A stretch of DNA of 64,000 bases, taken from Octopus vulgaris (Eukaryota). Of the stretch, positions 3,014 through 51,022 are shown piece after piece. The notes under the pieces were generated by a model that saw only the letters and a list, made by a program, of their open reading frames with translations, searched no databases and was not told the origin of the DNA. The translations under genes were made by a program, and so were the position numbers. Position 1 is the first letter of the stretch; every line of letters begins with the position of its first letter. The stretch is taken from positions 57,040,001 to 57,104,000 of the forward strand of contig OX597816.1 of NCBI GenBank assembly GCA_951406725.2, read 5' to 3'.

Positions 3014-3677
3014 CATATTACCATCTATATGTGTGTGAGTTTGTCTCTGTGTGTGTTTACGCATATGTACATACATATATTTTAATATCGTGTTAAAAAC
3101 AATTTCACATTAAACTGAAAAATGATTTTTTTTTATTAGTACATATTTATTAAGTTTTTACTTTGACAGTGACTTCGAAATTTTTGCTTTATCGCTTTCA
3201 TCAGACAAGCTGAAACTTCGAAGTTACTGTTAATCGTTCTATTGTGAGTGTTAATATGTGTGTGCGTGTATGTGTGTGTATACATACATATATACAATTA
3301 CGCACGCACACACACACACATACACACACATGCACACGCGCACACAAACACGATTAACTTATCCCTGTACTTTTGTATTGGTATATACGTGTTTAATGTG
3401 TGCGAACGTTAATGTACCCGCATTCCACCCATGCCACTCATGGTATAACAATTGTTGCCGGTTTAGCACCGCTAACTCTTCGTAATTGGAATTTAATTTT
3501 AGTTTAATTACCAACATTTCTGCTTCACCACTTGAATTAAAAAACTTTCAGATGAGGAACTGCATGATGCGGAGGGAAGGAAGTGAACAGAAGGAAAAGA
3601 TGAAAGAGATAAGGAAAGAAAGAAGGCGAAATAAGGAAGAAAAGAATAGAGAATCACAAGGAATGAAGTTATTTTGC

Positions 3678-3902
3678 TTAGAACATAATCTTTTCTGCTC
3701 TTGGCACAAGGCCCGAAATTTTGGGGGAGGGAGCCAGTCGATTGTATCGCCCCAGTACGCAACTGGTACTTAATTCATCGACCCCGAAAGGATCAAAGGC
3801 AAAGTCGGCCTCGGGGAAATTTGAACTCAGAACGAAAAGATAGACAAATACTGTTGAGCGTTTCACCCGGCGTGCTAACGACTCTGCCAGCTCGCCGCCT
3901 TT
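3678..3902 (-). mobile_element. SINE family B (tRNA-like head, Meta-domain-like body)
   Basis: Minus-strand head aaggcggcgagctggcag...gttctgagttcaaatt, body gcctttgatcctttcggggtcgat...aagtaccag; many copies in the window. Confidence 0.85.
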
Positions 3903-7492: not shown

Positions 7493-7614
7493 TGTATGTA
7501 TGTATGTATGTATGTATGTATGTGTGTATATGACGTGCTTCTTTGTATGTACATAAGTAAGCATGTAAGTAGACAGCTAGGCATATAAATATGTATGTGT
7601 ATGCGTTATTTTGC

Positions 7615-7772
7615 TTAGAACATAATATTTTCTGCTCTTGGCACAAGGCCCGAAATTTTGGGGGAGGGAGCCAGTCGATTGGATCCGCCCCAGTACGCAA
7701 CTGGTACTTAATTCATCGACCCCGAAAGGATTAAAGGCAAAGTCGGCTTCGGGGGAATTTGAACTCAGAACA
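7615..7772 (-). mobile_element. SINE family B fragment
   Basis: Near-identical to 3678-3830. Confidence 0.85.
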
Positions 7773-8001
7773 TAACAGATGTATAATATATATATACATA
7801 TATATATATATATATTATATATAAGGGCTTAGTAAAATAAATTACTTTGCCACATACTGAACTCATTAGAAATAGCAGCTAAAGAAATTTCTTTAGCTAT
7901 TTCTAATACTTAAAGAAAATCTCTCTCAGATAGTGTTTGCTCAAACCAACTCACACAGGTATGGGGGAAAAAACATTAAAAAATCAAGTGCAAAGGTTAT
8001 T

Positions 8002-8053
8002 TGAGAACGTACGTTTCTAGATTAGTCAAATCGACATTTCTTTCGTCAGCTCA
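8002..8053 (-). ncRNA. Type I hammerhead ribozyme motif (family 1, copy 1)
   Basis: Minus: tgag CTGACGA aagaaatgtcgatttgactaatcta GAAA cgtacg TT ctca; helix I tgag/ctca, palindromic helix III. Confidence 0.8.
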
Positions 8054-8557
8054 GAACTCCTTGATTCGGATTTGGGAACACTGAAAGTGGGAGCATATCC
8101 TTTTGGCTTCTTATCACCTCTAGATTTCCGCTCGAACTAAAAGTGCTATCAAATTCGAAATATGCAAGCGAAGAATTTCTGCTCTCCCTTTCCACCAGCG
8201 TGGGTTAAAATTGACAAACACTATGTTTTATCGGTGAAAACCGACGCATTAAACAGAGAGAAATGAATTATAATTTCAACAATTGAGGGTAAAATTAATT
8301 AATTATTAATCAATTTCACCAAGTATTCAGTATGTAAAGGGACCATTTTAGGCGAATTCAAAATATTACATTATATATAAGGGCTTAGTAAAATAAATTA
8401 CTTTGCCACATACTGAACTCATTAGAAATAGCAGCTAAAGAAATTTCTTTAGCTATTTCTAATACTTAAAGAAAATCTCTCTCAGATAGTGTTTGCTCAA
8501 ACCAACTCACACAGGTATGGGGGAAAAAACATTAAAAAATCAAGTGCAAAGGTTATT

Positions 8558-8609
8558 TGAGAACGTACGTTTCTAGATTAGTCAAATCGACATTTCTTTC
8601 GTCAGCTCA
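8558..8609 (-). ncRNA. Type I hammerhead ribozyme motif (family 1, copy 2)
   Basis: Same sequence as 8002-8053, 556 nt further on. Confidence 0.8.
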
Positions 8610-9113
8610 GAACTCCTTGATTCGGATTTGGGAACACTGAAAGTGGGAGCATATCCTTTTGGCTTCTTATCACCTCTAGATTTCCGCTCGAACTAAAAGT
8701 GCTATCAAATTCGAAATATGCAAGCGAAGAATTTCTGCTCTCCCCTTTCCACCAGCGTGGGTTAAAATTGACAAACACTATGTTTTATCGGTGAAAACCG
8801 ACGCATTAAACAGAGAGAAATGAATTATAATTTCAACAATTGAGGGTAAAATTAATTAATTATTAATCAATTTCACCAAGTATTCAGTATGTAAAGGGAC
8901 CATTTTAGGCGAATTCAAAATATTACATTATATATAAGGGCTTAGTAAAATAAATTACTTTGCCACATACTGAACTCATTAGAAATAGCAGCTAAAGAAA
9001 TTTCTTTAGCTATTTCTAATACTTAAAGAAAATCTCTCTCAGATAGTGTTTGCTCAAACCAACTCACACAGGTATGGGGAAAAAACATTAAAAAATCAAG
9101 TGCAAAGGTTATT

Positions 9114-9165
9114 TGAGAACGTACGTTTCTAGATTAGTCAAATCGACATTTCTTTCGTCAGCTCA
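9114..9165 (-). ncRNA. Type I hammerhead ribozyme motif (family 1, copy 3)
   Basis: Same sequence, third monomer. Confidence 0.8.
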
Positions 9166-9369
9166 GAACTCCTTGATTCGGATTTGGGAACACTGAAAGT
9201 GGGAACATATCCTTTTGGCTTCTTATCACCTCTCGAATCACCTCTCGAATCACCTTATCACCACTCGAATTTGATAGCACTTTTAGTTCGAGCGGAAATC
9301 TAGAGGTGATAAGAAGCCAAAAGGATATACTCCCACTTTCAGTGTTCCCAAATCCGAATCAAGGAGTTC

Positions 9370-9421
9370 TGAGCTGACGAAAGAAATGTCGATTTGACTA
9401 ATCTAGAAACGTACGTTCTCA
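9370..9421 (+). ncRNA. Type I hammerhead ribozyme motif (family 1, inverted arm)
   Basis: tgag CTGACGA...GAAA cgtacg TT ctca read directly on the plus strand. Confidence 0.8.
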
Positions 9422-10193
9422 AATAACCTTTGCACTTGATTTTTTAATGTTTTTTCCCCCATACCTGTGTGAGTTGGTTTGAGCAAACACTATCTGAGAG
9501 AGATTTTCTTTAAGTATTAGAAATAGCTAAAGAAATTTCTTTAGCTGCTATTTCTAATGAGTTCAGTATGTGGCAAAGTAATTTATTTTACTAAGCCCTT
9601 ATATATAATGTAATATTTTGAATTCGCCTAAAATGGTCCCTTTACATACTGAATACTTGGTGAAATTGATTAATAATTAATTAATTTTACCCTCAATTGT
9701 TGAAAATATATATATATATATATATATATATCAAAATAAGGATTCAAATAGAATCACGTACTTGAAAAGATATGGAGGGTTGGATAAATCTGTGGTTCTA
9801 GCCTATGGTTGGTAAGTATTAAATTGGATATTCCGGTTGTTTACTCAGAGAAAACCAAAGCTTTATGAGTATTTAGCGCCTAAGGGGCTGGTCCAAATCA
9901 CGTGTCACGTTGCACGTGTTACATTGTACGTTGTTGGTATACTCTAGGGTGTCCGACAAGTCGTATATCCCCTTGGTGTATTATAATCAAATGAAGAATA
10001 ACAAGCGATGGATAATTGTCGGCTCATTACAGCTAGAAGAATGAGAGCATTTCTTCATTACAGAGAACTGTAATCATCAAATGAAACGTAATTTAACAAA
10101 TAAAAGAATATCCCAAGAATATGGCAGGGACGCGACTGGAAGAAACAGCTGTAATGAGCTGATATTTATCCGTCGTCTGTTATTATTCATTTG

Positions 10194-13413: not shown

Positions 13414-14421
13414 AGTTAGTTAGTTAGTTAATTTGGCTCAAAAGCAAATACCAAGGCCATGTAGGGGGACATGGAGTTAAGTACAGGGTGGTGTTCATGT
13501 AAAGAGTTCAGGCCACTTGAGGTCCAAGGAGGCTTTGAACAAAGCGGTCGTCGGCATCTTCACCATCTCGTCTGGCAGCTTGTTCCACGGATCCGCAACC
13601 CGGACGGTGAAAGCTCCTCTCCTTCGATTGAGATGAAATCGTCGCAGGTAGAGCTTTTCGGAATGACCCCGCAGCCGACGCTCCGGAGCAGGAGTGAAGA
13701 ACAGCTCTTTCGAGAGGTTACATTTCCCGCTTATGATGTTGTGGGCGAGAATGAGATCACCACGGCGGCGGCGTTTTTCAAGTGAATAAAGGTCGAGCGT
13801 CCTCAGCCTTTCTTCGTAGGACAAATTTTTGAGACCATGAACCATGCGGGTAGCCAGCCTCTGGACTCTTTCGGGATGCTGTATGTCTTTGAGGAGATAA
13901 GGAGAAGAGGCTTGAATCCCATACTCCAATATGGGTCTCACCAGCGTGACATAGAGTGGTAGGAATATGGCTGCTGTGAGCATTCCGAATGACCGTCGAA
14001 TCAAAAACAGAATTCCGCGCGCTTTGTTAGCAGCATGGACGCACTGGGCCGAAGGCGAAAAGGAGGAATCCACCAAGATACCCAGGTCCTTTACCTGATC
14101 GGTCCTCTCCAGCAGCAGACGACCCGGCTCGAAATCAAGTTGAGTTGCAGGAGTAGAGCCGACAGGCAGATGACAGCACTTTGACACGTTCAGACACAGG
14201 TCCCAATCGTTAGACCACTTCCAAATTTGGTGGAGGCATCGATGAAGATCCTCTATACTACCGCGAGGAGCGACCAGTTTGATATCGTCGGCAAATAGAA
14301 GGGTGTGTTGCGTGAGGTCGTCGGGCAAGTCATTTATGAAGACTAAGAACAACAATGGCCCAAGCACTGAACCTTGAGGCACGCCACTGCTCGCACTGGA
14401 GACGTCGGACCGCGAACCATT
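13411..14421 (-). mobile_element. 5'-truncated CR1/L2-group LINE with an open RT C-terminal frame and (TAAC)n tail
   Basis: 295-aa ORF 13495-14382 with PQGSVLGPLLFLVFINDL, LFADD, VRPILEY, RRRGDLI, LRGH; short 3' UTR ending at the gttagttag tract 13411-13430. Confidence 0.93.
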
Positions 14422-14677
14422 AACTTGAACTTGGAGTATATATATACACGCACATATATATACATATGTACATATACGTATATGTAATTATATAATATAG
14501 ATATACATATACGTGTACGTACGTACGTACATACATACATACACACATACATGCATACATACATACATACATACATACATACATACATACATACATACAT
14601 ACATACATACATGCATGCATGCATACATACATACATACATACATACATACATACATACATACATACATACATACATA

Positions 14678-21461: not shown

Positions 21462-21848
21462 TGGATGGAAGCACTCCGTCGGTTACGACGACGAGGGTTC
21501 CGGTTGATCCGAATCAACGGAACAGCCAGCTCGTGAAATTAACGTGTAAGTGGCTGAGCACTCCACAGACACGTGTACCCTTAACGTAGTTCTCGGGGAT
21601 ATTCAGCGTGACACAGAGAGTGACAAAGCCGGCCCTTTGAAATACAGGTACAACAGAAACAGGAAGTAAGAGTGAGAGAAAGTTGTGGTGAAAGAGTACA
21701 GCAGGGATCACCACCATCCCCTGCCGGAGCCTCGTGGAGCTTTGGGTGTTTTCGCTCAATAAACACTCACAACGCCCGGTCTGGGAATCGAAACTGCGAT
21801 CCTACGACCGCGAGTCCGCTGTCCTAACCACTGGGCCATTGCGCCTCC
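21462..21848 (-). mobile_element. tRNA-derived SINE family C, alternative 3' tail
   Basis: Minus head ggaggcgcaatggcccagtggttaggacagcggactcgcggtcg...gtttcgattccca (A/B-box-like); tail differs from the 38078/47996/50092 copies. Confidence 0.88.
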
Positions 21849-22575
21849 ACATGCACTTACATATATTTGTTATATGGCAATTGGTGAACATTAACACTGT
21901 CAATTACTGCCTCACGATGGCTCATCTAATGGTTTTTATGCTTTTATGACAAGATCGATCGAACCTGCATCTACATGTCGGCAAAACAAACTTGCTAACC
22001 ACTCAGCCACTGCGAGAAAGGAAAGTTTTTTACAATTACTACAACAAACTAATCATGTCTTCAACTTGTCACTTAAAATATCAGCTGTTTATATCATCTT
22101 GTATAACTTAGCTGAAAGTTTCTAACCGTGGCCATAACCCAGTAACCTCCTCCTCCTGATCACCAACACCACCCATGCTACTAACCTCCTCCTCCTCCTC
22201 CTCCTCATCATCATCATCATCAACACTATCGTATTCCAATCCCAAATTTTTTGATAAATGATTTATTAATAACCCAATTTGTGTCCTAAAATGGATATGA
22301 TCCTCATTTTTCAAACTTACACCCGTACTTACAGATATATATATATAATTAATCAATATAGGGTGGCAAAAAAAATTTTGTAGAATTCTTTTGCCACCAG
22401 CGGCCTAGTAGGAAAAAATTAAATAGTCATAGACCATTTTTAAGTTTAACATCAACAATCAAGGAACGGCCATAATAGGCCATTCACCCACTAGAAATAA
22501 CAGCCAAAGCTTCAACCGCAAATAAAAGTTAATTCTGTAAACCAGGAGAAAATTTAAAAAAACATTTACCCTGTA

Positions 22576-22682
22576 ATTTCTTATACGATATACCGTTTCA
22601 TCTGCTGATTAATGGTAAACTAACCTGATTAAATTAAATCAAGCCAATCTTCCACAGGCCCTCAGATTCTTCAGTAAGAAAT
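22576..22682 (-). ncRNA. Type I hammerhead ribozyme motif (family 2, copy 1)
   Basis: Reverse complement of 23444-23550. Confidence 0.88.
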
Positions 22683-23066
22683 AGCCCAAGTCGGAGCAGA
22701 TATTTTCACGAGGCATTTCCGACCTTGCCAAGTTTATATCTGACCTAAAATTTTCAAATCGTCGCACTCGCGCCAAATTTATCGGCAGCAAATAAATATA
22801 AGCCGTCGATTCCATTACGGAATTAACCAGAAAATTCATAATTAATCAATATAGGGTGCCAAAAAAAATTTTGTAGAATTCTTTTGCCACCAGCGGCCTA
22901 GTAGGAAAAAATTAAATAGTCATAGACCATTTTTAAGTTTAACATCAACAATCAAGGAACGGCCATAATAGGCCATTCACCCACTAGAAATAACAGCCAA
23001 AGCTTCAACCGCAAATAAAAGTTAATTCTGTAAACCAGGAGAAAATTTAAAAACATTTACCCTGTA

Positions 23067-23173
23067 ATTTCTTATACGATATACCGTTTCATCTGCTGAT
23101 TAATGGTAAACTAACCTGATTAAATTAAATCAAGCCAATCTTCCACAGGCCCTCAGATTCTTCAGTAAGAAAT
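23067..23173 (-). ncRNA. Type I hammerhead ribozyme motif (family 2, copy 2)
   Basis: Reverse complement of 23444-23550. Confidence 0.88.
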
Positions 23174-23443
23174 AGCCCAAGTCGGAGCAGATATTTTCAC
23201 GAGGCATTTCCGACCTTTTTCCTACTAGGCCGCTGGTGGCAAAAGAATTCTACAAAATTTTTTTTGGCACCCTATATTGATTAATTATGAATTTTCTGGT
23301 TAATTCCGTAATGGAATCGACGGCTTATATTTATTTGCTGCCGATAAATTTGGCGCGAGTGCGACGATTTGAAAATTTTAGGTCAGATATAAACTTGGCA
23401 AGGTCGGAAATGCCTCGTGAAAATATCTGCTCCGACTTGGGCT

Positions 23444-23550
23444 ATTTCTTACTGAAGAATCTGAGGGCCTGTGGAAGATTGGCTTGATTTAATTTAATCA
23501 GGTTAGTTTACCATTAATCAGCAGATGAAACGGTATATCGTATAAGAAAT
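23444..23550 (+). ncRNA. Type I hammerhead ribozyme with long helix II insertion (family 2, inverted arm)
   Basis: atttctta CTGAAGA atctg [~58 nt] cagat GAAA cggtatatcg TA taagaaat; 8-bp helix I, 5-bp helix II base, GUA site. Confidence 0.9.
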
Positions 23551-24202
23551 TACAGGGTAAATGTTTTTTAAATTTTCTCCTGGTTTACAGAATTAACTTT
23601 TATTTGCGGTTGAAGCTTTGGCTGTTATTTCTAGTGGGTGAATGGCCTATTATGGCCGTTCCTTGATTGTTGATATATATATATATATATATATATGTGT
23701 GCATGTATATATGTATATAATATGCATGTATATACATACATGCATGTATGTATATACATACATTCATATGTATGTATATATATATACATACATGCATACA
23801 CCAATGCAAGCACATTTACCCATATACATACAAGCATATACATGTGTGTATGTGCACGTGTGTGTGCGTCTGTGGATGGGTGTATATAATGCGTATGTTT
23901 ATACTTTGAATAACAGTCTGAAGTTTTTCAATAAAATACCACTATATTCTACACTTGATTTGGGAGCGCTATACTCTCCACCACCTTTTGCAGGTATGTG
24001 CTCGGATATGTATAATATAAACACACACGCACACGCACATTAATTAATTAATTCGCAATTAATGTGGAGTCATGTTTAAATATCCTCTCACTAGCCTGCG
24101 TTCAATCGCATGTATTTAAAGGGTTTTTTGGTAGCTTCGTAATGTTTGGGTATTAATCCAGTATGCAGGATATAAGTCTTGTCTTGATTTCCTTCCTTAA
24201 AA

Positions 24203-35119: not shown

Positions 35120-36113
35120 AGAAGCAACGGTAAAGTCAGTAGTTTTAGTTGTTGAAATAATCTGTTAATATTCAGTCGGATGACGTCCCTTCTCATCGCC
35201 TTCAATAGAACCCCAGCATGAATCGAACTCATCACTTCAAGATCCCACCCCGCCATCAATGTCATATTGCTCCTGCTTATGTTTCTTAGGGCGACGAGAT
35301 GTCCCCATTGTGTTATATAGATTTACAAGAAATAAGCTGGACTCTGAGAATTGAGTAACTAAACAACAAACACTACTGTGTATCTATAAACCACCAAATT
35401 CGTGTGTGATTGGCTCTCATTGATCACATTCACAAGATCGATACCCTGTTATGTTTTATTCAATCAATATATTTGTACCGTGGTAAGTATAGAGGAGAAT
35501 TATTGATTTATTTCTTTTTACTTTTTTATTTCACCTTCATCTTATTATAACATTGAATATTTTTACTGTCGGCTAATTGGTATTTTTGTAGCTGAATAAA
35601 CCATGATCTGCATATCTGTGACACCCCAACCGTGACAATTCCTTCTTTTAGTAGGATAATCTAGAACTACATTATCTATTGCGTCGTTCCCTTGTTTCAA
35701 GATAGCAGGGTATAATTTGAGGAAGATTTAGCTGCTATTTCCAGTACTAGCAAATCTACCCATCTACGATGGAGGCATAAAATGAGGGAGGGCAGTCATA
35801 ACAGCAATATGTATTGAGAAATGTGTAAATGGACCTGATAGATTACTGGGTGATGTCTTAGAGAATTCACATTATTCTGGGTGATACAGCATTCTATTGC
35901 AGTTATATGACATGTCTTTGCGACTAAATGACATGTGATGACGATTTACTCTCGAATTAAAATAGGCTCCCAGCCTTTGTATCATGAATGGTTATGTGGA
36001 CCACTCCTAACGAAAGCCAGAGTTTCCTTCGACCACTACATAAAAAGTATTAAGAAAAAAATGTTATTTAGATATACTTTTATTTTAGCGTTTTACACTA
36101 TTTTACGCTTGGT

Positions 36114-37010: not shown

Positions 37011-38077
37011 TTAACTTACTTTCCTTTGCTTCTTTTATTAGTTATCTCCCCCTTAATTTTTATTTACCTTTTTATGCTCATAAACTGAACAATTATCCTC
37101 AATATCCACTAAATAATCATATATATTACACAGTATTTTGTTTCGTGTCTTTCCGTGCAATTTCCGCACGCTTCACGCTTCAGCTTACCCGAAGACTCTT
37201 TGAACACCTATTTCCTATTCTTCTAAACATTTCTCCCCACCCAATAACATTATATACGGTTCCTAATTCTCAACCAGCTTGAAATAACCATATAATTATC
37301 GATACTTTGATCTTCCTTTGAAAGTTGAGCCTGTTTTATATTGATCTCCGGCCATCCTCTTAACTTTGATCTGAGATTCTCCTCTTAGATTGAGTTTTCT
37401 CATAACCGACTTGGTTAGTGATAGTCTAATGAAAAAAGCCTACTGGGTTTGTTATAAATATTTGTCGGTGATTGTTGATGTGTTTCTAATAAAGAAAAAA
37501 ATTTAGCTGGTAATAATAAAATAATAAATTTCAATACATTGTATTAAGGGAAATAAATTCATTGAAAACAATTACATGAAATTCTGAATAACTTAACTTT
37601 ATGACACGTTCTCTTTAAGAGGAGAACAAATTTTGCTTAGGATTTTTTCTCAAACTGAGACAGAAATTTCAATAAATTGAAAATCTGTTATGCTTTTAAT
37701 CCTTAACCATAATCCTTTACAGAGACTGGTGGGAAGCGGAAACTTGCTCCGATTGCTTTACAACTGATTAGATTCCTCTAAAGGCCCTCAAAATACCTTG
37801 TGGTGAGGTGAAACTGAGAAACAAAGTCTGTTGCCATTCAATTAGGTTGTGCCGAGATTTGAACTCAGAATGCAGAAGTTCATAAAAACAACTCGTGACT
37901 AATCAGTAGATCACCCCACTTCATTTACTGGATCGAATAATTCATGCATGATTTAGTCGTGAATTAATTGCAGGTAACCAATGGCAATTTTAACGCACCA
38001 TTTATGACCACCACTGCAAATTCCATGAATATAATCAGACTCTCTTCAGTTGCTGTTGGGATGCTGCTGCTGTTGCT

Positions 38078-38437
38078 GTTGAGCGAAGCGGTCTTCGTCC
38101 TCTTGGGAGAAGTCCGAAACGTGGTCTTTTGCTATTCGTAAGACCAGCAGAAGAGAAAGCTGGTCAACCCCCGACACCGAGAGCATCGACGGATGGATGA
38201 ATGCGCATCCAGGCTCAGCGGTTGCGTAGGAAGTCGGGGACAAGAAACAGGAAGAAAGAGTGAGAGAAAGTTGTAGCGAAAGTGTACAACAGGGCTCGCC
38301 ATCACCCCCTGCCGGGGCCTCGTGGAACTTTAGGTATTTTCGCTCAATAAACACACACAACGTCCGATCTGGGAATCGAAACCTCGATCCTCCGACCGCG
38401 AGTCAGCTGCCCTAACCATTGGGTCATTGCGCCTCCA
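38078..38437 (-). mobile_element. tRNA-derived SINE family C
   Basis: Head ggaggcgcaatgacccaatggttagggcag..., tail ...cttcgctcaacagcaacagc. Confidence 0.9.
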
Positions 38438-39174
38438 CTGCTGTTGGGATATACAAGTATACGAGTGAAGGCGCTCAGTTCTCGATCACTGCGTAGTGTC
38501 TCTTACTATAATTGGCTCAAGGTCTGTGAGTGAAATTGAACAAACAGAAACAGTGTGAAAGCCGTCGCCATTGTGTGGTGGGTGCAACGTGTCAATGAAA
38601 TGCTCAGCTATTCGCACGCTAATTCCATGAATATGTAATACTGTGTAATTATCATCGTCGAAATCGACAGAGATCCAGTTACTTTATACACTATATCTGT
38701 AGACATTAAAATCAACCCACACTCCTTGTTTAACATTGTTTAACATAACAATGCCTTGCAAGGACATGTCCGAGTAGAGCCATGTTCCTGGGTGTTCGCA
38801 TGATAACATGATACGTTGGCAGCAACGAAGACTATTGCTTCAACAAGGAGTGACTAGAAACAATGAAGTTAAAGAGATTCTGCGCGGTTAAGTCTTGCTG
38901 GATGCACCCACTTCTACATTACTAACATTTAGATTAAGAAAAGAAAATACAAGAGTGTCACTTTGGTTTATCGCATTACAATGTTGCATCTTTGACCTTT
39001 ACACGGAAGATAATGAGAACTGTGCACCGAGACACCAAGATGGAGAGGCAACTCTAAGACAAACCAGAATCTGTTTAGACTCGCAAACATTATTTAGTTT
39101 TTACTTCAGCATTCTTTGACTATAATTACGTGTTGTGTATTGCATTTTATTTTTGTTTTTTTTCTTTAGTTCGA

Positions 39175-47406: not shown

Positions 47407-47995
47407 CTATCTATCCTTCCACATCCGTGTTTAAATCATTCTGTTACAATTACACGATTCACTTTTGAAGTTACTGTAAAGAATCTCCATAAAGCAGTTT
47501 CAGTAAAGAAGGTAGATGTATTCTTGTAAGGCTTAACTAGCCTTAATCCCATTCTTAATCCTTTAGTCTTTCACCATTATTCACAGCTTTCTTGCATTTT
47601 TTTGCTTTTCAATGTGAACCTCTTTTTTTTTCGTTTGTTTTTGTTTTCTTTTTTTTTTCAACATGAAATTATTTTTAAAGAAAATTTTTCTCTTTATTTT
47701 ATTACTTTTGCTGCTGGCGTTGTGATTGTTGCTGTCACTGTTGCCTTAGTGATAGCGGTGGTGGTGGTTGTGGTGGGTGTGGTGGTAGCGGCGGCGGTGG
47801 TGGTGGTGGTGGTGGTTGAATTGGTGGTGGTGGTGGTGGCGGCGGCGGTGGCGGTGATTTAGGTGGGGGTGAAACCAGTGTCGTTGGGATGATAGTGATG
47901 GTGGTGGTGCAGCTGCTGCTGCTGCTGCTGCTGGTGGTGCTGGGTGGTGGTGGTGGTAGTGGTGTGGTGGTGGTGCTGCTGCTGCTGTTGCTGTT

Positions 47996-48351
47996 GATGT
48001 CGTGCGAAACGGTCTTCGTGGGAGAAGTCCGAATCGTGGTCCTTTGCTATTCGTAAGACCCGCAGAAGAGAAAGTAGGTCAACCCCCAACACTGAGAGCA
48101 TCGACGGATGGATGAATGCGCATCCAGGTTCAGCGGTTGCGTAGGAAGTCAGGGACAAGAAACAGGAAGAAAGAGTGAGAGAAAGTTGGGGCGAAAGAGT
48201 ACAACAGGGGTCGCCACCACCTCCTGCCGGAGCCTCGTGGAGCTTTAGGTGTTTTCGCTCAATAAACATACACAATGCCCGGTCTGGGAATCGAAACCGC
48301 GATCCTCCGACCGCGAGTCCGCTGCCCTAACCATTGGGCCATTGCGCCTCC
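47996..48351 (-). mobile_element. tRNA-derived SINE family C within (GCT/GGT)n
   Basis: Homologous to 38078-38437. Confidence 0.9.
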
Positions 48352-49300
48352 GCTGCTGCTGCTGCTGCTGTGGTGGTGGTGGTGTTGGTGGTGCTGCTGC
48401 TCGTGGTGGTGATACGGCTGTGCTGCTGCTACTGCTGCTGCAGCTGTTGATCGCCGTAGAAGTAGTGGCAGCGGTATTGGTGGTGGTGGTGGTGGTTTGA
48501 GGAGGAGGAGGAAGAAGAGGAGGAGCTGGTATTAGTGTCGGTAGTGGTGTTGCTGCCGATGTGGATGGTAATGGTAGTGGTTGAAGACTTGAATTCACTG
48601 GAGACTACTAAACAATTACTAAACAATAACTCCTTGCTGAAGCTAAGGGGCTTTGTCCCTTTAAGGTTTCTCTTAGTGTCTACCCATGGCATATTAAGGA
48701 CAGAATGAGAATGGCTGAGGTACAGAAATAACAGTTACAGTGCTCCATCACCTCGATGCGTAGTGATTTTATGAAGGGCATGAGTGACGATGAATTTGGG
48801 GTATTCTGGCTGTTGACAATGGGTTTCCAGGCCGATGAATGTCATCCGAATGTCCCCTTCTTTCCAATGGCTCCTCTTTTTAATATCCTTAATCTACCCA
48901 CTTTCTAATAACTCCTTTCTCTGATGTCTCCTATTTTTCTCTACTTATTCATGTTCCGTATTTCTCATATTCTTTTCTGTCTAAAGTCCCTACTTTTTAC
49001 TGCCGCCTTTGTTTTAATGTCCCTTCTTCTTCATGTCCCCTATTATTTAATGCCCCTAATTTCTAGTGTCTCCTACTTTTAACGACCCTTTCTTTCTAAA
49101 TTCCCTTTCTTAGGTATTCTTGTGATAAACAGTCAAACAATGATTTTTATAAGAAATCTCTGGATGAAAGAATCGGTAAAACACAAAAACACAATAACAA
49201 ATGAGCTACTTCCGACTCTTCACGTTCTGACTTTTTACAAGCGTCGGTAAAATAAATACCAGTTATGTACTGGTGTCAATATAATCTAGTATATGCTCTC

Positions 49301-49933: not shown

Positions 49934-50091
49934 TAATCTACTCTCATATTTCTAATCTGCCAAATTTAGAAATTCTCTTCCGTAAATATTCGTTTCTGAC
50001 AATTGAACACACCTTTTCTTTTCTGTTCCATTTATGAAGATTATTCTTCATCTATGTTGATGTCGTTGCTGCTTTGTTTGTTTGTTTGTTT

Positions 50092-50445
50092 GTTGAGCGA
50101 AGTGGTCTTCGTCCCAGAAGTCCGAAATGTGGTCCTTTGCTATTCGTAAGACCCGCAGAAGAGAAAGCTAGTCAACCCCCGACACCGAGAGCATCGACGG
50201 ATGGATGAATGCGCATCCAGGTTCAACGGTTGCGTAGGAAGTCGAGGACAAGAAACGGAAAAAAAGAGTGAGAGAAAGTTGGGGCGAAAGAGTACAACAG
50301 GGGTCGCCACCACCCCCTGCCGGAGCCTCGAAGAGCTTTAGGTGTTTTCGCTCAATAAACACACACAACGCCTGGTCTGGGAATCGAAACCGCGATCCTC
50401 CGACCGCGAGTCCGCTGCCCTAACCATTGGACCATTGTATCTCCA
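50092..50445 (-). mobile_element. tRNA-derived SINE family C with (AAAC)n tail
   Basis: Homologous to 47996-48351. Confidence 0.9.
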
Positions 50446-51022
50446 CTTGTTGTTGCTGCTACTTCCGTTGTTGTTGGTGTTGTTGCTGATGATGTTTAGC
50501 CCTAGGTCAGTCCTGATCCAATGGAAATTACCTCTGATCAATAGCATCGAATTATGACCATCCCTGTTTTGGTTATGTGTTCTTTCTTTTTTTTTTGTTT
50601 ATTTTTCGAAGTAGATTTTGCAGAATGTTCTTTTTTAAGACTTGAGTGTTTATAATTGGAAGGGTGTCTGGCTGCTATGCCTTGCAAGCCGTGTGTCTAC
50701 CTATAGACTCCCTTGTCCCGTCCATAAAAAGACGCTGTTCTTGTTAGTAACCCTTGTTGTTGTTGTTGTTGTTGTTGTAGTATCTGGTGTAATTGCGGAC
50801 ACTTTTTCCACGATCCCAACTTGGATAAATATCACATTGTACATTGTGTACCTTATCAAAACAAATCCAGGGCTGAATAAGATGGGGCGGGAGGGGTGCG
50901 AGATTTACACTGAAGCTGTGGGGCGGGGGGTTCTTCTTTTCTCTGTACACGGCTAAGCTCTACAAATAGGGCCTTTGCTCTGTGTATGCTTTGTATGTTT
51001 ATATGTGTGTTTTGGCGCGTAC

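Follow-up and report, generated by a model that had tools for sequence, protein, structure and literature searches.

The repeat locus at 7814–9705 of the window (the whole 64,000-nucleotide stretch of octopus DNA analysed here, which is microsatellite-rich and animal-like) is probably a non-autonomous retroelement with hammerheads, an animal non-LTR retrozyme, that inserted recently. The insertion was most likely made in trans by the reverse transcriptase (RT)/GIY-YIG protein of a Penelope-like element (PLE). Both the kind of element and the pattern of insertion have already been described; what is useful is their coincidence at a single insertion.

The locus, referred to as family 1, comprises a tandem array of 2.56 near-identical 556-bp units and an inverted arm that is the reverse complement of 8714–8274, with one mismatch in 441 positions (Table 1). 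The original prediction of a 556-bp monomer repeated 2.5 times, plus an inverted arm, is therefore confirmed. The array period reads as 556 or 557 because of two homopolymer indels. A single homopolymer base distinguishes the left unit from the middle one; the third unit has one such difference and also a substitution, while the inverted arm departs from the middle unit at one substitution in its 441 nt. The sole two substitutions between the copies (9205 and 9329–9330) occupy adjacent positions of the inverted-repeat stem, and both are G to A on the plus strand.

Each unit, as well as the inverted arm, carries its own type I hammerhead motif, with GUU sites 556 nt apart. The unit has a GC content of 34% and no coding capacity: its longest stop-free frame is 60 aa, a Pfam match was obtained in none of eight frames, and the RT plus GIY-YIG ORF of an autonomous PLE was sought in it and not encountered. 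As a circular monomer, its RNA folds better than shuffled versions (z −6.3; 100 dinucleotide shuffles), with 64% of bases paired. Rfam microRNA matches at 9181–9357 were rejected, as they correspond to the inverted-repeat hairpin and score far under the gathering thresholds.

Table 1. Features of the family 1 insertion, in window coordinates.
Feature	Position	Strand	Remarks
(TA)n target tract, left	7782..7823		TA microhomology overlap with element end; true junction 7814–7823
Tandem arm, 2.56 units	7814..9233	-	RNA sense minus; 3' end leftward, stopping at proximal end site
One complete unit, register from recurrent distal end	8269..8825	-	
Type I hammerhead, copy 1	7991..8063	-	Predicted cut after 8006; extent mapped from arm copy
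Type I hammerhead, copy 2	8547..8619	-	Predicted cut after 8562
Type I hammerhead, copy 3	9103..9175	-	Predicted cut after 9118
Head-to-head junction	9225..9264		Alternating tandem-arm end (8666–8677) and inverted-arm start (8714–8709)
Inverted, 5'-truncated unit, ending at distal end site	9265..9705	+	
Type I hammerhead, copy 4	9360..9432	+	GUU 9415–9417; predicted cut after 9417
18-nt motif common to family 2, candidate cis signal	9539..9556	+	149 nt before distal end
Tail of 96 nt, from proximal to distal end site	9610..9705	+	15-bp hairpin 14 nt before end
(TA)n target tract, right	9706..9731		

The hammerheads were located with a type I descriptor. Their CTGACGA cores start at 8049, 8605 and 9161 (minus strand) and at 9374 (plus strand), and the N17 positions (8006, 8562, 9118 and 9417) yield two cleavage-to-cleavage monomers, both of 556 nt. 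The predicted spacing of one unit thus holds, and the positions first given for the motifs (8002, 8558 and 9114) correspond to the 3' end of lower stem I. In controls, the descriptor gave no hit in 5000 shuffled monomers and one core in 40 shuffled windows; the nine real matches in the window all fall within three repeat loci. No Rfam hammerhead match was obtained at the gathering score or up to E=10, and a 25-nt hammerhead pattern gave 0 matches against metagenomes.

The catalytic core is intact. No core variants occur among the 40 of 53 variant sites shown, an outcome that would arise by chance about one time in four (hand estimate) and so does not count as evidence. Stem I consists of 4+3+5 bp, while stem II is interrupted and closed by an A10.1–A11.1 mismatch in all four copies; a U-A pair at 10.1/11.1 accounts for 46–77% of family 1 depth in four runs. 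Stem III is a single base pair; its palindromic GUAC loop lies within a palindrome of 10 nt, for which a duplex energy of −11.6 kcal/mol is calculated. Hammerheads with a 1-bp palindromic stem III are reported to need dimers (PMC4209133, PMC7229834), and eight of nine predicted Xenopus dimers did not cleave in the experiments described by Li, Clavereau and Pollet (2026; bioRxiv 10.64898/2026.07.22.740005). The ribozyme fold of family 1 (−6.7 versus a minimum of −11.0) is not the lowest-energy fold, and the pairing probability of stem I is low (0.05 in a 221-nt context). Given the A-A mismatch and the 1-bp stem III, cleavage may be weak; the ribozyme would probably cut best as a dimer formed through the palindromic stem III.

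Both 3' ends of the element (RNA sense) face outward into (TA)n tracts. The right, or distal, end maps to 8826–8833 of the unit, where (TA)n abuts the element in at least 23 contigs of run X2 and at least two of run X8 among the 24 of 311 loose ends shown. The left, or proximal, end lies 96 nt short of the distal one, at a TA-rich site; among the same loose ends, one ambiguous case at 8937 is the sole candidate for its recurrence. Other family 1 copies likewise abut (TA)n, and so share the AT-rich microsatellite target. Within (TA)n a target-site duplication is unreadable. Hairpins precede the ends but are not stronger than those of the unit's background windows, and are suggestive only. A CCCT lies 8–20 nt before the (TA)n run at 4 of 96 run ends, three of them at these elements, although this motif was chosen post hoc. 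A step in depth at 8815–8835 was discarded as evidence for the distal end; it fits, but depth is equally high at 8735–8754, and it gives no copy number.

Because the recurrent right end sets the register of the unit, the inverted arm represents one 5'-truncated unit with a tail and does not cross a monomer junction; nor is the left boundary a monomer junction. The inverted arm was originally predicted to run through the sequence marking that boundary, and a 96-nt overrun is indeed present. Its use as proof of a circular or multimeric template is not supported, since the overrun resembles a PLE tail: the extension is confined to the inverted arm, its distal end recurs, and by analogy it behaves like the one-sided tail of PLEs, although at roughly three times the published length of 30–40 bp. 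Circularly permuted ends, also anticipated, are not supported. The right end recurs at 8826–8833, a second family shows the same two-site pattern, and the ends of family 1 look fixed at two sites rather than permuted.

The nature of the template is nonetheless constrained. Of the inverted arm, 153 nt precede the cleavage site and 288 nt follow it. Since both arms read through this site and the tandem arm runs for 2.56 units, the template was very probably uncut there and thus either a circle or an uncleaved multimer, so that this part of the prediction survives on other grounds. Circles as templates for cDNA of more than unit length were already proposed in 2014 and 2020 (PMC4209133, PMC7229834).

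Animal non-LTR retrozymes have been described by Cervera and de la Peña (2020; PMC7229834) and Li et al. (2026), both of which propose that they are mobilised by PLEs through circles. Family 1 resembles them in its non-coding tandem unit with a type I hammerhead in each of three consecutive units, its GC content under 45%, its multicopy nature and its self-paired monomer RNA. The 1-bp stem III with a palindromic tetraloop is like that of HHR_Amex1 of the axolotl. At 556 bp, the unit is above the range of 150–450 bp in PMC7229834 and within the 51–972 bp of Li et al. The inverted arms of family 1 also set it apart, in that the word “inverted” occurs 0 times in the main text of PMC7229834. This likeness is one of DNA sequence; expression, cleavage and circles are features of the published retrozymes. 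The locus shows every retrozyme feature that could be tested, and is not an autonomous PLE.

Hallmarks of PLE insertions include partial tandems, an adjacent inverted 5'-truncated copy, a 30–40-bp tail at one end and a bias for microsatellites (Craig et al. 2021, PMC8557442; Arkhipova et al. 2013, PMC3846280), with head-to-head given as the most frequent arrangement (PMC3846280). Family 1 shares with EN+ PLEs (Penelope/Poseidon, Neptune, Nematis, Naiad and Hydra) the partial tandem and inverted 5'-truncated copy placed head to head, a tail-like extension at one end, the microsatellite target and a hammerhead near the 3' end. Judged by these features, the locus appears to work like a PLE insertion. 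Unlike EN+ PLEs, family 1 has no ORF, and its tail is 96 nt compared with 30–40. Its hammerheads also differ from the minimal hammerheads of PLEs in lacking the G10.1–C11.1 pair, given as conserved in PMC4209133, and the unpaired bulge after position 9. Naiads show the same (TA)n bias as family 1 but have no canonical hammerheads. Non-autonomous Chlamys PLEs such as MRC1 (PMC8557442) are likewise non-coding, with multicopy head-to-tail insertions thought to be PLE-mobilised. In contrast to family 1, they occur in green algae, mostly lack canonical hammerheads and target (CA)n and (C)n (PMC8557442).

In work with a purified PLE protein, both DNA strands were cut and extended, AT-rich DNA was preferred, and synthesis began at two internal sites, one at either limit of the tail; insertion was independent of hammerhead cleavage (Frangieh et al. 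2024, PMC11167929). In the octopus, the PLE protein would nick both strands of the (TA)n tract, and cDNA synthesis from each nick would begin at one or other of two fixed positions within the unit, separated by 96 nt, on a template uncut across the hammerhead site. In the resulting pair of arms, both 3' ends would face outward and one arm would carry a tail. The template has an even chance of having been an uncleaved multimeric transcript; a circular monomer copied round 2.56 times is somewhat less probable, and re-use of one RNA through template jumps improbable.

An autonomous PLE partner was not found among the 52 of 178 window ORFs scanned, the sole RT in which looks like that of a LINE. 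This RT fragment (13498–14487, minus strand) is an open 330-aa frame with a match to Pfam RVT_1 (E 3e-14); it is 5'-truncated and bears a short simple-repeat tail beside (TA)n. From its motifs we take its clade to be LINE rather than PLE. Other repeats are present in the window as well. A SINE-like dispersed repeat with many window copies lies directly left of the insertion (7605–7781; 96% identical to 3668–3833), and the target (TA)n adjoins its end; it is reminiscent of SINEs in octopus genomes. A further dispersed repeat of ~390 bp, about 90% identical among 38062–38446, 47977–48361, 50091–50494 and 21645–21853, has no hammerhead match.

The centre of the locus is a patchwork, in which 8669–8677 alternates with the first six bases of the inverted arm and is followed by 8666–8674, with overlaps of 1–2 nt; only base 9263 is left unexplained by pieces of the two arm ends. 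This composition agrees with the end-joining patchwork that had been predicted. It fits microhomology-mediated joining with templated insertion, a polymerase theta-type repair, although RT slippage is also possible. The two cDNA ends would thus have been joined by repeated rounds of microhomology annealing and short synthesis.

Another possible origin for the inversion is a single priming event, after which the cDNA folded back at a small TCGAA hairpin and copied itself, with the patchwork arising from later repair of an unstable palindrome centre. Self-priming has been proposed for PLE inversions (PMC3846280), just 37 nt of the unit separate the points at which the two family 1 arms stop, the inverted arm begins at a TTCGAA palindrome, and the arms of a third family (described below) stop about 13 nt apart. 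On the other hand, the hairpin is weak (−1.5 kcal/mol as DNA), the inverted arm ends at the family's recurrent end, and in the second family the arm stops are separated by about 310 nt, at a junction with 2 nt of microhomology. Copy 3 also has two private differences that the inverted arm does not share, although these may be later changes or errors. On balance, fold-back is rather unlikely; as it concerns the origin of the inversion only, its probability overlaps with those of the alternatives below.

Family 1 is also present in public sequence data. The unit is present in 20 of 24 listed runs, under four organism labels. Among the listed runs, none with an RNA record holds it; X8 was only guessed to be RNA and is not counted toward expression. 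Contigs covering the unit segment 8715–9300 numbered 3584, 9408, 1489 and 206 in four runs, and many were 5–10% diverged. At nine variable sites checked within copy 3, all copies covering a site share one letter, which is often the minority letter of the family. Such shared letters in the four copies indicate one source sequence and a young event. Family 1 is therefore a high-copy, diverged, non-coding family, of which the window copy is young. Among the papers listed in literature searches on octopus Penelope, hammerhead and retrozyme elements, there was no description of family 1.

Single low-depth contigs on 8715–9300 show internal skips of 92, 192 and 296 nt, plus strand switches, which hints that the family includes deletion derivatives and further inversion junctions. 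The joint 8716–9265 was rejected as proof of tandem copies, as it reflects only continuity of the unit across the cut in the query; contigs cannot distinguish a circle from a tandem.

These contigs bear on whether the unit is instead only the pseudo-LTR or 3' end of an autonomous PLE, such that the locus would be a stack of 5'-truncated copies rather than a member of an independent non-autonomous family. Retrozymes resemble pseudo-LTRs according to Li et al. (2026), and pairs of opposite-strand hammerheads 100–700 bp apart have been attributed to truncated PLEs (PMC4209133). In addition, Logan contigs are too short to reveal an ORF. However, the units are equal in length and seamlessly joined, the unit has no ORF remnant or Pfam match, and the share of contigs continuing into unlike sequence is just 0–0.03. 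Diverged contigs in all four runs also cross the 8825/8826 register, although none of those listed has 31 letters on both sides. A pseudo-LTR origin is therefore unlikely.

Less probable still is an assembly artefact, whether a chimeric or fold-back read or a mis-joining of high-copy repeats. No contig or joint among those listed spans the family 1 centre (contigs show presence only), so that the junction is known from the assembly alone; the copies differ mainly through homopolymer indels, and loci of this kind are known to trouble assemblies (PMC8557442). Nevertheless, the two arms differ in length, and each ends at its own site and adjoins a different flank. Both arm ends have served as templates for the patchwork, locus-specific letters are common to the copies, and the same anatomy occurs in two other families. 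Least probable of all is local growth of a satellite through unequal crossover or slippage, without an RNA intermediate at the locus. Local amplification of a terminal repeat into arrays was suggested by Li et al. (2026), but such growth does not account for the inversion, the tail, the recurrent end or the outward orientation of both ends in (TA)n, even if it could still add or remove a unit later.

The two other families contain the five further hammerheads found in the window with the same descriptor. Family 2 (22345–23674; period about 493) is also a partial tandem with an inverted arm, head to head in (TA)n. The roles of its arms are swapped relative to family 1, with the tandem arm bearing the extra 106 nt of tail. 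The stem II region of its hammerhead measures 83 nt, and N17 falls at 22584, 23075 and 23542. A weak alignment sets the family 1 hammerhead against this long stem II, and might reflect a decayed motif. Family 3 (18993 to about 19427) is a near-perfect inverted pair of ~168 bp with a 12-nt centre, arranged head to head in (TA)n, and its hammerhead has an A-C mismatch at 10.1/11.1 and a GUA site. About 85 nt separate its right arm from the next (TA)n, and by likeness to the other families this stretch is probably a tail.

Families 1 and 2 share an 18-nt motif with seven exact matches in the window, all in the loci of these two families, compared with 0.02 expected (the pattern having been drawn from them). 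It lies 149 nt from the distal end in family 1 and 147 nt in family 2. A lone copy with two mismatches at 35726–35743, with no hammerhead nearby, is possibly an old relative. An end-to-end alignment of the two families keeps both end sites in register (z 2.85; equalled by 5 of 500 shuffles), although the part that follows the motif shows no significant homology on its own (252 of 1000 shuffles).

These features allow a broader, tentative proposal, with less than an even chance of being correct: several retrozyme families of this genome, with unrelated hammerheads, may share a cis module, comprising the 18-nt motif and two RT start sites separated by 85–106 nt, with a hairpin immediately before the distal site; each insertion may consist of two cDNAs primed at the two sites on a circular RNA. 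The longer tail and the shared end module are the only new points of anatomy, and are drawn from two to three loci. If the proposal is true, the tail would be unusually long for a PLE, the anatomy would be direct evidence that retrozymes are moved by PLE proteins, and the families would supply abundant natural data with which to tell a circular template from a precursor.

In the papers cited here, the link between retrozymes and PLEs is made through co-occurrence, shared hammerheads and pseudo-LTR homology, whereas here the insertion itself bears the marks of a PLE. The origin of the tandem and inverted structures of PLEs is called an open question in PMC8557442. With a short, young and abundant non-coding family that has two mappable end sites, it would become testable by counts of ends in a single assembly.
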